From an uncultured Candidatus Saccharibacteria bacterium (lineage in GTDB: Bacteria; Patescibacteriota; Minisyncoccia; Phycocordibacterales; XYD1-FULL-46-19), in NCBI GenBank assembly GCA_964355855.1, contig CAYHFD010000001.1, forward strand, positions 9,921-73,920: a DNA stretch of 64,000 bases. The letters run 5' to 3'. A program made the position numbers and the translations under genes. Positions 9,123 to 36,270 of the stretch are shown one piece after another; position 1 is the first letter of the stretch, and each line of letters opens with the position of its first letter. The notes under the pieces are model-generated. The model worked only from the letters and a program-made list of their open reading frames with translations, was not told where the DNA came from and ran no database searches.

Positions 9123-9614
9123 CTATTTCAAATAACTATCAAACCAGACCGCGTGGCAGGTGTAGCCACCCGGGTTTTTCTGCAGATAATCTTGATGGTG
9201 GGCTTCCGCTGGGTAGAATTTAGTCAACGGCTCCAAAGTGGTCACCACCGGCCCCGACCAGCGACCAGACTTGTTGACGATATCAATAAATTTTTCGGCT
9301 TCACTTTTTTCTTCATCACTCCCATAAAATATCGCCGAGCGGTAGGAACTGCCTTTATCATTTCCCTGTTGATTTAAAGTGGTTGGATTATGCACCCGAA
9401 AAAAGAAGTCGAGTAAGTTTTTATACGAAGTCTGGGTCAGGTCATATTCTATCTCCACTGCTTCAGCGTGGCCGGTGTGGTTTTGATAGGTCGGATTGGC
9501 CACACTACCTCCGGTATAACCTACTTCAGTATTAATAACCCCTGGTTCTTTTCGAATCAGTTCCTCTAGGCCCCAAAAGCAACCACCCGCCAAAACTATT
9601 TTTTTATTATTCAT
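9123..9614 (-). CDS. msrA: peptide methionine sulfoxide reductase A
   Basis: IVLAGGCFWGLEE catalytic motif. Confidence 0.9.
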   Translation of the reverse strand: MNNKKIVLAGGCFWGLEELIRKEPGVINTEVGYTGGSVANPTYQNHTGHAEAVEIEYDLTQTSYKNLLDFFFRVHNPTTLNQQGNDKGSSYRSAIFYGSDEEKSEAEKFIDIVNKSGRWSGPVVTTLEPLTKFYPAEAHHQDYLQKNPGGYTCHAVWFDSYLK

Positions 9615-17879: not shown

Positions 17880-18113
17880 CTTTGGCAATATTGGTAATGG
17901 TCGAAAGTGTAGGTGATACATAGGTCGGACCCATGGAAATGGTGACCCTCACAGCCTGGGAAACCCCCACCCGCCATCGCAAGCTCAGGCGTTGCGGGGC
18001 AGGCACGGTTTTCCGACGAGCTTCGCTCTGCCTTCCTCCACGGGAAAACAGGTGTTTTCCCGACCCCTTTCCCCTGTAGGGTCACAGTTTTTTCACTGTG
18101 TTTTAAAAAACTG
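17880..18113 (-). ncRNA. GC-rich structured element G (homolog of 27480-27702), immediately 3' of tRNA-Glu
   Basis: GC-rich in AT-rich genome; shared blocks CCTGGGAAACCC, GGTTTTCC, CTCCACGGGA.A.CAGGTGTT.TCC with element R; 20-bp perfect inverted repeat 18074-18124 includes the tRNA 3' end. Confidence 0.4.
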
Positions 18114-18185
18114 TGACCCTACAGAGAATCGAACTCTGATTACCGCCTTGAAAAGGCGATGTCCTAACCGTTAGACGATAGGGCC
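18114..18185 (-). tRNA. tRNA-Glu (anticodon TTC)
   Basis: GGCCCTATCGTCTAACGGTTAGGACATCGCCTTTTCAAGGCGGTAATCAGAGTTCGATTCTCTGTAGGGTCA folds as cloverleaf; loop TTTTCAA. Confidence 0.85.
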
Positions 18186-24995: not shown

Positions 24996-25026
24996 GAAAA
25001 AGGCCTCCATCACTGGAGGCTTTTTG
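24996..25026. terminator. intrinsic terminator immediately 3' of tRNA-Phe (minus strand)
   Basis: GGCCTCCA-TCAC-TGGAGGCC hairpin flanked by A5/T5 runs on both strands. Confidence 0.65.
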
Positions 25027-25391
25027 TGCTTGGGGGCGGGTTCGAACCGCCGACCCTTCGCTCTTCCAGAGCGTTTGGACTATATCATCATCCGTTCTGC
25101 TAATAAGCAGAGTTAGGAGGCAGGCGCTTCCCCTCAACTACGCTCGGGGTAAACCCTAAGCTAATCAAGAGTACTCCCTTTCGGGATAGTCTCTACACCT
25201 TCCGAGCACCACTTTTGAATTCTAGAATATTCTAAAAACCAAAAGTGGTGCTCGGCTTGGCTCGGGATTGTCCAAAAAATTAATCTTGGGTGTCCCCCGA
25301 ATTCACCTACTTTTTCGATCCACTTTACAATAGAAAGGCCCGAAGTTTTTTAGGGTCCAGGCGAATGCTCTACCAACTGAGCTACCCAAGC
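25027..25391 (-). tRNA. tRNA-Phe (inferred anticodon GAA) interrupted by a ~282-nt group-I-like intron in the anticodon loop
   Basis: 5' exon 25359-25391: GCTTGGGTAGCTCAGTTGGTAGAGCATTCGCCT; 3' exon 25027-25076: GAAGAGCGAAGGGTCGGCGGTTCGAACCCGCCCCCAAGCA; halves form perfect acceptor (GCTTGGG/CCCAAGC), anticodon (TTCGC/GCGAA) and T stems. Confidence 0.75.
25077..25358 (-). ncRNA. group I intron (self-splicing ribozyme candidate) within tRNA-Phe
   Basis: 5' exon ends in U, intron ends in G; contains GAGACTATCCCGAAAGGGAGTACTC (P7/GAAA-tetraloop-like) and GATGATATAGTCC (P7') reminiscent of the Tetrahymena/cyanobacterial cores. Confidence 0.65.
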
Positions 25392-27479: not shown

Positions 27480-27702
27480 TGATTTTCTGGCTGGTACCCC
27501 AGGCTCCTGGGAAACCCTGCTCCTCCGCTAAAGCTAGCGGCACGCGGGCGGTTTTCCCAATCCTTCCCCGCCTGCCATCGGCTGCGCCATCAGGCAATGG
27601 CGGGCAGGCTCCACGGGAGACCAGGTGTTCTCCTCTAAGCCGTTCGGCACGAGCTAGGCCGACCCCACTCCCTGCCGGGGGCACAACTCGTTCCCCTCGT
27701 TG
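27480..27702 (-). ncRNA. GC-rich structured element R (homolog of 17880-18113), immediately 3' of tRNA-Arg
   Basis: Shares ordered sequence blocks with element G; helix CGGGAGACC-AGGT-GTTCTCC covaries with CGGGAAAAC-AGGT-GTTTTCCCG of G; 14-bp inverted repeat GCCGGGGGCACAAC/GTTGTGCCCCCGGC includes tRNA 3' end. Confidence 0.4.
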
Positions 27703-27774
27703 TGCCCCCGGCAAGAATCGAACTTACATCAGCTCGTTAGGAGTGAGCCGTTCTATCCATTGAACTACGGGGGC
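27703..27774 (-). tRNA. tRNA-Arg (anticodon CCT)
   Basis: GCCCCCGTAGTTCAATGGATAGAACGGCTCACTCCTAACGAGCTGATGTAAGTTCGATTCTTGCCGGGGGCA; one A-C mismatch at base of anticodon stem. Confidence 0.75.
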
Positions 27775-28481: not shown

Positions 28482-28602
28482 AGAAATGATGCCTAACTTG
28501 ATGTGTGGGTGAACTATATCCGCAAAATTACTACTGGATTTTCATAAATTATACTCGCATGACTCGTTAATTTATGGAAGAAGCAACCATTTTGCCACTA
28601 AA

Positions 28603-28910
28603 CCCACACACTAACTTTTGTTTTGGAAAAGTTCTAAAGTTTTACCAATACGCTTGAGAAGCTGATTACGCGCTTGCCCCCTTAATTTTAAACTACTCTC
28701 CCTGTTGCGCGCCTCCTCCTCAATCGAATAAGCTTCATAATACAGTAGTTTAAACGGGCGTCTAGATTTGGTTGAACGAACTTTTCCTAAATTATGTTCT
28801 TCTAGACGTTTCTTTAAATCATTGGTTGAGCCAACATAAAGATCATGGTCTTTTAAACTTCCTAAAATATACAAGAAGAACATAATTTGAAACAAAAGTT
28901 AGTGTGTGGG
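28603..28910 (-). mobile_element. miniature GIY-YIG cassette with perfect 20-bp terminal inverted repeats and 5-bp TAAAC target duplication, inserted in a duplicated tRNA-Gly 5' fragment
   Basis: CCCACACACTAACTTTTGTT at 28603-28622; exact reverse complement at 28891-28910; flanks GAAGAAGCAACCATTTTGCCACTAAAC and TAAACTAATTCCGCA copy the tRNA-Gly 5' region (28449-28481). Confidence 0.7.
28611..28883 (-). CDS. GIY-YIG nuclease family protein (COG2827-like, ~90 aa)
   Basis: YILGSLKDHDLYVGSTNDLKKRLEEHN = GIY..YVG...R..EH catalytic motif; ATG at 28883 (TTG at 28895 alternative). Confidence 0.8.
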   Translation of the reverse strand: MFFLYILGSLKDHDLYVGSTNDLKKRLEEHNLGKVRSTKSRRPFKLLYYEAYSIEEEARNRESSLKLRGQARNQLLKRIGKTLELFQNKS

Positions 28911-28934
28911 TAAACTAATTCCGCAATAAAAATT

Positions 28935-35820: not shown

Positions 35821-36270
35821 ATTGCCTTTTGTTTATAAGCCGAATTCTGTACCGAGCACCACTTCTGACACCCACATTCTTATTAGAAAACACTAAGTAA
35901 GTGTAAATTGATTTGCTAGTGAAAGTTAGACAGTCAGTAGCAGAAGTGGTGCTCGGCGATAGCCATTTATCTGGGATGACTGTCGCCAGCCACCTCAAGC
36001 GGCACAAACCAGTGCAAAGCACTGGAGTACGACCTTGCATTCGGGTAGGTATTTTGCCGTTTCAATCTTCAGGTTTCCCTGAAGCTTCACCCCAAAGGGT
36101 GCCTTTGCCTCTCGGCTAGGGCGTCACTGCTCTCAACCCTCGGATTGCTCCGGACAGGCGTTACCTGCTACCTTGTTCCACCATCTAAAGATAGTGGGAA
36201 TGTTCGGACTTTCCTCTATCAGCCCGCCCAATCGGGCAAACTGACAGTAGCTATCCAACAAAAGGCAACC
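35821..36270 (-). ncRNA. rnpB: RNase P RNA (bacterial type A-like)
   Basis: Minus-strand: GAGGAAAGUCCGAAC (P4 5' strand), GGUAACGCCUG, GGGUGAAGC, ACAGAAUUCGGCUUAUA (P4 3' strand); P1 GGUUGCCUUUUGUU pairs with AACAAAAGGCAAUU. Confidence 0.8.

Follow-up and report, generated by a model that had tools for sequence, protein, structure and literature searches.

Two hairpins in a tRNA-Phe intron and an RNase P RNA belong to a Patescibacteria-wide family of small palindromic cassettes

The Rickettsia palindromic elements (RPEs) are small palindromes that have invaded functional genes of a reduced genome, genes for RNA among them, and we know of no transposase that is linked to them. Here we describe a comparable element, a hairpin cassette that occurs twice in a 64,000-nt stretch of DNA from an uncultured Candidatus Saccharibacteria bacterium (assembly GCA_964355855.1, contig CAYHFD010000001.1, positions 9,921 to 73,920; this whole stretch is hereafter the window), once in the group I intron of a tRNA-Phe gene and once in the gene for RNase P RNA (rnpB). 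Both hairpins belong to a family of such cassettes, small and palindromic, that extends across the Patescibacteria, or candidate phyla radiation (CPR). For comparison, the genome of R. felis holds 728 RPEs, three of which lie in RNA-coding genes (PMC1166351). RPEs are 100–150 bp long and best known for in-frame insertion into protein genes, whereas the cassette measures 23–105 nt, no CPR copy lies in a long open reading frame (ORF), and most of the copies examined sit in structured RNAs.

Other described systems resemble the cassette in part. Intervening sequences (IVSs) of rRNA occur in h6 and other variable helices of 16S rRNA and in helices 9, 25 and 45 of 23S rRNA. Like the cassette, which is found at h6 and in the h10 region, they are sporadic extended stem-loops replacing the tips of variable rRNA helices; they are defined by RNase III excision and fragmentation of the rRNA. 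To our knowledge, IVSs share no sequence with RNase P RNA, introns or mRNA spacers. In cyanobacteria, short tandemly repeated repetitive (STRR) sequences reportedly occupy P12 of RNase P RNA, and heptamers or small dispersed repeats are said to occupy P6b of the tRNA-Leu intron. These genome-wide repeats too extend an outer helix in RNase P RNA and the P6 helix of a group I intron in a tRNA gene, which makes the two host RNAs the same as for the cassette, but they are tandem heptamers or 21–27-nt repeats of other sequence, restricted to heterocystous cyanobacteria, and do not amount to a single, defined palindrome built on a conserved core of 10 bp. Mobile hairpins of organelles (the GC clusters of yeast mitochondria, the double-hairpin elements of Allomyces, the palindromic repeats of Volvox and Chlamydomonas) are likewise short palindromes in variable rRNA regions, group I introns and spacers, with mobility inferred from presence and absence; unlike the cassette, they belong to eukaryotic organelles, and their sequences are unrelated. 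We know of no report of them at several positions of an RNase P RNA. Finally, repetitive extragenic palindromes and bacterial interspersed mosaic elements (REP/BIME), with their REP-associated tyrosine transposases (RAYTs), and bacterial miniature inverted-repeat transposable elements (MITEs; Correia, ERIC, BOX/RUP) are short, dispersed, non-autonomous elements, palindromic or bounded by terminal inverted repeats, that form hairpins in transcripts, as the cassette does. The cassette differs from them in lacking a GTAG head and a target-site duplication, in its low copy number and in lying mostly inside genes for structured RNA.

Extended helices, rRNA insertions and a tRNA-Phe intron have been described in papers on CPR RNase P RNA (PMC8172020), CPR ribosomes (PMC9297842) and Patescibacteria tRNA introns (PMC13011429), none of which describes a hairpin shared among these RNAs. 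A literature search by sequence returned GTGGTGCTCGG only in unrelated primers, and we found no description of the cassette family in the literature searched.

The hairpin pair in the window

The first copy (25202–25255, minus strand) lies in a tRNA-Phe(GAA) gene (25026–25391, minus strand; ARAGORN with introns) that is split by a 292-nt group I intron (Rfam RF00028, 54.3 bits, 25058–25361, minus strand), and in the Rfam alignment it constitutes the P6 helix of that intron. It is a near-perfect palindrome of the 54-nt class whose arms, CCGAGCACCACTTTTG and CAAAAGTGGTGCTCGG, are separated by 22 nt; in the RNA sense (the minus strand) it folds into 17+7 bp with a predicted free energy of −36.2 kcal/mol (z = −11.2 against shuffles). 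The second copy (35852–35956, minus strand) lies in the gene for an RNase P RNA of bacterial class A that has additional helices resembling P5.1 and P19 (35820–36266, minus strand; Rfam RF00010, 103.4 bits). This member of the long, 105-nt class has a 16-bp stem, formed by CCGAGCACCACTTCTG and CAGAAGTGGTGCTCGG, around an irregular 73-nt interior, and its predicted free energy is −42.6 (z = −7.0 against shuffles). By the Rfam alignment it falls between the 3′ strand of P2 (GGCUAUC) and the 3′ strand of P4 (ACAGAAUUCGGCUUA), which is the P19 position. The original prediction, made by a model from the letters and their ORFs, had named both host RNAs and placed an insertion ahead of the P4 3′ strand of rnpB, and Rfam and ARAGORN agree with it. 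The contig comes from Hainich groundwater metagenomes, and the nearest homologs of the window's proteins are from Candidatus Vogelbacteria/Paceibacteria (Patescibacteria, CPR). A cyanobacterial origin, which the pairing of intron and rnpB had suggested, was rejected on these grounds.

As that prediction also held, the two copies have the same perfect 16-bp stem, one compensated pair apart (T–A to C–G). The stem is thus real, but the unit conserved in the wider family is shorter, namely its outer 10 bp, CCGAGCACCA paired with UGGUGCUCGG. In the first copy this core comprises CCGAGCACCA at 25202–25211 and its partner TGGTGCTCGG at 25246–25255, and the second instance of the arm pair is at 35852–35861 and 35947–35956.

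Allowing up to three mismatches, the 16-mer has six matches in the window against 1.15 ± 1.12 expected, a number reached by none of 100 shuffles, and its four exact matches are the four arms of the two hairpins. This excess, together with the more than 70 copies of the family, rules out the suggestion that the match arose by chance. A DNA-uptake sequence was rejected as a candidate, all the exact matches being paired arms in RNA genes and not scattered single sites, and so was a recombinase core site of the lox or dif type, since the spacing between arms ranges from 3 to 85 nt across copies. One could still suppose that each hairpin is an ancestral native helix of its own host RNA and that the identity of intron and rnpB reflects chance or convergence, given that P19-like and P5.1-like helices are regular in these rnpB genes, as P6 is in the introns. 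Four exact 16-mers where about one loose match is expected by chance, the presence of more than 70 copies with homologous interiors in unrelated hosts, and the comparisons with relatives given below make this explanation scarcely credible.

Anatomy, distribution and hosts of the cassette

Patescibacteria genomes and groundwater metagenomes together yielded more than 70 copies of the core, and the copy numbers and the conservation of the outer positions carry a bias, both large scans having forced the outer 12–16 nt. The genome scan covered one genome per species with the pattern CCGAGCACCACTTNTG, and hairpin and single-arm matches were noted among the matches listed, to which the following statements apply. 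Matches in hairpin form occurred only in CPR genomes, namely Saccharibacteria (locus L001), Taylorbacteria (L052, L074), Yonathbacteria (L120) and one Parcubacteria metagenome-assembled genome (MAG) with five hairpin copies (L002, L071, L088, L092, L101). The 16-mer also matched at seven loci of Entotheonella, each with a single arm; these are unrelated and mark the start of a multicopy transposase-like ORF. The other matches outside the CPR consisted of one arm only. The metagenome scan, which used a hairpin-shaped pattern with the outer 12 nt forced and a total length of at most 98 nt, returned 44 loci. Viral contigs gave no match to the hairpin pattern, and a phage origin of the cassette was rejected on that ground.

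A fuzzy search for the conserved part, over about 430 kb of CPR sequence, identified the outer 10-bp GC-rich stem as the invariant unit. Short forms, and copies that no search pattern had forced, retain this part alone, and it persists from Saccharibacteria through to Parcubacteria around interiors that vary throughout. In the mini form (23–24 nt) a loop of 3–4 nt closes the core directly, as in CCGAGCACCA-GAAA-UGGUGCUCGG; longer forms have an AU-rich, often perfectly palindromic extension inside the core. Lengths overall span 23 to about 105 nt, with two groups at about 38–56 nt and about 95–105 nt. Rfam yielded no family over the hairpin even at E ≤ 1 other than spurious microRNA models, and membership in a known RNA family was therefore rejected.

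Hosts were assigned from flanking sequence, with confirmation by Rfam where the score allowed. In rnpB, cassettes occur at P3 (L154, L172), at a P5.1-like position just after the 5′ strand of P4 (L134, L153, with mini forms in L154 and L157), at P15–17 (L157, L159, with a mini form in L154) and at P19 (the window, L153 and, as a diverged copy, L172). Flanks place five copies at h6 of 16S rRNA (L130, L139, L140, L150, L166), of which Rfam confirms only that of L139 as lying inside a 16S rRNA match, and one copy, that of L164, lies in the h10 region inside an Rfam 16S rRNA match. Adjoining the L164 cassette is an ORF-bearing IVS of about 430 nt in h6 (575–1005), whose ORF, judged by eye, resembles the four-helix-bundle "23S rRNA IVS protein". 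Regions of and insertions in 23S rRNA carry the cassette in L132, L156 and L165, and the flanks of the last resemble group I intron cores with a cassette at P6 and mini forms at P8. Cassettes were also found in introns of tRNA-Phe and tRNA-Thr genes called by ARAGORN (and in one that it labelled tRNA-Asn, a doubtful call), in a tmRNA-like RNA of about 160 nt (L142), and about 250 nt past the 3′ end of 16S rRNA in L149, which is likely to be spacer. The only copy in a long open frame (L131) is on a metagenome contig of 58% GC that is probably not from the CPR.

About 13 copies are intergenic. They cap larger inverted repeats in operons for ribosomal proteins and translation, and the start codon follows about 10 nt downstream. 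In some CPR ribosomal-protein operons an intergenic hairpin has a conserved frame, AACGAGCGAAGCGA...[variable tip hairpin]...TCGCTTCGCTC(C/G)TTAAnAAATYAAYCATG, as at 9253–9349 and 11980–12150 of L129 and in L123, L124, L127, L133, L144 and others. It ends about 10 nt before the start codon, with no obvious Shine-Dalgarno sequence, and its tip is either a CCGAGCACCA cassette or another palindrome.

Cassette-bearing rnpB genes (L153, L134, L154, L159) fall under the Rfam gathering score, with 35–42 bits or no match, and standard annotation thus misses RNase P RNA in such genomes. Their low scores agree with PMC8172020, which reports "diverged" RNase P RNAs in CPR bacteria whose helices are greatly extended.

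Turnover and copying among relatives

Orthologous tRNA-Phe loci, found through homologs of Hsp20, differ sharply in their P6 helices: L175 has a 54-nt cassette, L177 a 32-nt short form, L159 a decayed copy and L174 none, and in L178, L153 and L179 the syntenic tRNA-Phe gene has no intron. The comparison of L174 with L175 is the cleanest, as intron and exons are 100% identical outside P6, which in L174 is a 19-nt hairpin, CCGAGUCUAAUUUACUCGG; the P6 cassette has thus changed with zero point substitutions elsewhere in the gene. The comparison with homologs lacking the module, proposed in the original prediction, thereby finds presence and absence in otherwise identical introns. That the outer CCGAG/CUCGG pairs are kept even in the cassette-free P6 of L174 is what an ancestral native helix would lead one to expect. 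Downstream of the intron-bearing tRNA-Phe gene of L159 (200–600) there is a repeated segment that includes mini cassettes (CCAAGCACCA-AUU-UGGUGCUCGG, three copies) as well as a terminator and the 3′ end of the tRNA, and that looks like a local duplication or the relic of an att site.

The window rnpB was compared with 11 other CPR rnpB genes, and relatives were located through homologs of the syntenic adjoining gene for a TPR protein, independently of the hairpin; the percentages that follow are identities to the window's TPR protein. L167 (61%) has a different hairpin of about 100 nt (CCCUGUGGAAUAAAGAG...) at P5.1 and a small unrelated one at P19. In L168/169 (56%, Vogelbacteria) the hairpin at P5.1 is small and unrelated, and P19 holds the CCCUGUGG hairpin, the same as at P5.1 of L167. 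L170 (58%) has the CCCUGUGG hairpin at P5.1, and L171 (57%) has small unrelated hairpins at both sites. L172 (48%) has a third hairpin of about 190 nt at P5.1, a CCGAGCACCA cassette at P3 and a diverged one at P19, CCGAGCAUCA...UGAUGCUUGG, with a compensated AUCA/UGAU variant. The window itself has an unrelated 9-bp hairpin, CCCACUAUCUUUAGAUGGUGG, at the P5.1-like position (36120–36145) where relatives bear the cassette.

The P19 junction, from the 3′ strand of P2 to the 3′ strand of P4, holds a hairpin in L153, L154, L157, L167, L168, L171 and L172. The location is that of a native P19 helix, but vertical inheritance of its sequence within the clade is not seen: the sequences are unrelated among the nearest relatives, and the cassette is at P19 only in the window and in the more distant L153 and L172. 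Since the nearest relatives (L167, L168/169, L171) have other hairpins at this site of their syntenic rnpB, the cassette is not ancestral at P19, and the alternative raised in the original prediction, that the module is universal and ancestral in RNase P RNAs of the clade, fails. A second, unrelated hairpin family of about 100 nt (CCCUGUGGAAUAAAGAG...CUUUUUAUUCCACAGGG; L167 1803–1895, L168/L169 2055–2148 and the start of L170) behaves like the cassette in that it switches between P5.1 (L167, L170) and P19 (L168/169). Turnover of the cassette is fast and its distribution patchy.

Within single genomes, copies resemble one another across sites. The rnpB of L153 contains two identical 82-nt copies, at P5.1 and P19, which separately inherited native helices would hardly produce. 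The five copies in the Parcubacteria MAG are near-identical in three different flank contexts, and the two rnpB copies of L179 have genome-specific stem variants in common (inner stem CUUUCAG, 3′ arm GCUUGG) around unrelated loops. Among cassettes of the 54-nt class, the 22-nt interiors are alike at a mean of 15.5 of 22 positions, against 8.6 for shuffles (95th percentile 12), and judged by this similarity they are homologous across intron, rnpB and intergenic hosts. One intergenic copy clusters with one 16S insertion copy by the loops of the long form; among the long copies, no relative of the window's 73-nt rnpB interior was found (best local score 13, shuffle 95th percentile 14). In the genome comprising L171 and L174, which is without the core, the rnpB P19 helix (UCGAGUACUAAUAAUACUUGA) and the intron P6 helix score 8 against each other, as compared with −4 to 4.5 for eight control hairpins, which hints that P6 and P19 are homogenised there as well.

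Mechanism, function and meaning

We think that the cassette is, on balance, probably a fast-turnover copy-and-paste palindrome that acts in RNA as a passive helix extension. Copying would occur at the DNA level, either by non-autonomous transposition or by short-tract gene conversion or template switching between hairpins, and would spread the cassette within genomes and, partly on mobile group I introns, between CPR lineages. Copies persist only where a long helix does no harm, namely in variable helices of stable RNAs that face the solvent, in rRNA insertions and spacers, and at the ends of intergenic hairpins. In RNA the cassette would fold into a coaxially stacked helix of great stability, extending or taking the place of the local one and leaving the catalytic core untouched. 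From the patchy distribution, the rapid turnover and the similarity of copies within a genome we infer both this DNA-level mechanism and the absence of a dedicated function. As in a MITE, all copies have terminal inverted repeats (10–16-bp perfect inverted termini).

Several observations weigh against such a passive, copied palindrome. Neither a target-site duplication, which would be expected of a MITE, nor a common insertion target was found in the flanks of more than 60 copies, and no transposase is encoded by the 10 ORFs that adjoin intergenic copies. A REP element with a RAYT does not fit: there is no 5′ GTAG head, only two copies were found in 64 kb, both in RNA genes, and neither a RAYT nor a parent transposon was seen near copies, no genome-wide RAYT search having been made. 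At P3, h6 and P16/17 the cassette abuts the adjoining conserved strands, so that the whole native helix has been replaced and not inserted into, a precision that simple insertion does not explain. The original prediction of a mobile mini-insertion module colonising RNA genes is the best supported of the explanations and is right about a dispersed family in RNA genes; mobility is probable from the distribution, and in many hosts "replacement" is a better word than "insertion". Conservation of the outer positions, in turn, is partly by construction because of the forced pattern of the two large scans. The remaining points on this side are those that would favour a functional RNA module: the 10-bp core is kept across CPR phyla around a variable interior, copies are almost confined to stable RNAs and strongly expressed operons, as against ordinary intergenic DNA (both copies of the 64-kb window are in RNA genes, and both of those in 22 kb of L179 are in rnpB), and in oriented copies G·U mismatches outnumber A·C mismatches 13 to 5 in the RNA sense. 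This excess of G·U weakly indicates selection for pairing at the RNA level, although it would be expected in any functional-RNA helix.

Such a module, the other option raised in the original prediction, would have its conserved helix serve as a common recognition site on stable RNAs and operon transcripts, for example as the tether of a CPR-specific RNA-binding protein or chaperone, or as an RNase III processing signal that removes the variable interior, as in rRNA IVSs; copying between sites would then be only the means by which a useful module is acquired. In its favour, stems co-vary within one genome while loops differ, and the cassette sites at h6 and in the h10 region of 16S rRNA coincide with known IVS sites. 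A perfect Watson-Crick helix, however, offers little basis for sequence-specific RNA recognition, and the mini forms, at 10 bp plus a loop of GAAA or 3 nt, fall short of what RNase III requires. Close relatives are without the cassette at the same sites, an unrelated hairpin family takes its place at the same rnpB sites, decayed (L159) and compensated (L172) variants indicate weak sequence constraint in places, and short rnpB copies contain A·C mismatches in the RNA sense. We thus consider a functional module possible but doubtful.

A more specific proposal starts from the sequence of the core. CCGAGC-A-CCA equals the 3′-terminal 10 nt of mature tRNA-Phe in the Parcubacteria MAG JALVSO01 (L092), the tRNA-Phe of the window itself ends in the main core variant, CCAAGCACCA, and conservation ends exactly after CCA. 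The helix may thus resemble a permuted pre-tRNA acceptor stem used by enzymes of tRNA maturation, with the 5′ arm CCGAGC-A-CCA standing for the acceptor 3′ strand, discriminator and CCA of tRNA-Phe and the 3′ arm UGGU-GCUCGG for the acceptor 5′ strand preceded by a leader whose last nucleotide is U(−1), or the core may merely betray an origin from hairpins at the 3′ ends of tRNA genes. Downstream of each of the window's tRNA-Glu, tRNA-Arg and tRNA-Phe there is indeed a hairpin in which the tRNA's 3′ acceptor strand pairs with a second, later copy of its 5′ strand, an architecture that the cassette shares. G1–C72, A73, CCA and U(−1) are all present, but an accessible CCA retained under divergence is not: in the fold the CCA is base-paired and not free, it is lost with compensation as AUCA/UGAU (P19 of L172) and ACCU/AGGU (L165), and it has decayed in L159. 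The acceptor stems of other CPR tRNA-Phe genes (L153, L159) are different, nothing of the sort is seen in the second hairpin family, and the resemblance was noticed post hoc. Either version of the acceptor-end proposal is, in our judgement, a lead but very unlikely.

At four loci, a hairpin that pairs the 3′ acceptor strand of a tRNA with a later copy of its 5′ strand is followed by a structured RNA: after tRNA-Glu (about 17945–18124, minus strand) and tRNA-Arg (about 27480–27713, minus strand) in the window, after tRNA-Tyr in L142 (1570–1730) and after tRNA-Phe in L179 (18998–19200). The structured RNA is 146 nt long after tRNA-Glu and 162 nt in L142, and its long terminal stem mimics the acceptor or T arm of its own tRNA. 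Three of the four end in ...ACCA or ...UACCA, and that of L179 ends in ...CAUCA. They have GGGGUCGG...CCGUGGAGGA(A/G) in common, and they gave no Rfam match at E ≤ 1 and no call of transfer-messenger RNA (tmRNA) by ARAGORN. Separately, the window contains a perfect 22-nt inverted repeat, ACCCACACACTAACTTTTGTTT, at 28602–28623 and 28890–28911 (arms 266 nt apart), between tRNA-Gly and an ORF, which could be a MITE-like element.

The functional and acceptor-end proposals can be joined in one conjecture, that the cassette is an address label on stable RNAs and ribosomal-protein transcripts, which copies the tRNA-Phe acceptor end (CCGAGC-A-CCA) and is recognised by one common factor, for instance RNase III, a folding chaperone or an enzyme of tRNA maturation. 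We hold this to be quite unlikely. If it were true, unrelated RNAs would trade whole helices of ribozymes and rRNA as cassettes, and both the evolution of non-coding RNA and RNA processing would have a mode that is undescribed in bacteria.

Across several CPR lineages, one short helix unexpectedly links RNase P RNA, rRNA, self-splicing introns, a tmRNA-like RNA and operon spacers by homology. The peripheral helices of these ribozymes are therefore no independent characters: they are overwritten or exchanged. In phylogenetics, h6 and h10-region sequences of 16S rRNA can be non-orthologous. Extremely reduced genomes appear to tolerate selfish DNA at these sites; if the cassette should instead be a recognition or processing signal, it would represent a CPR-specific layer of RNA maturation.

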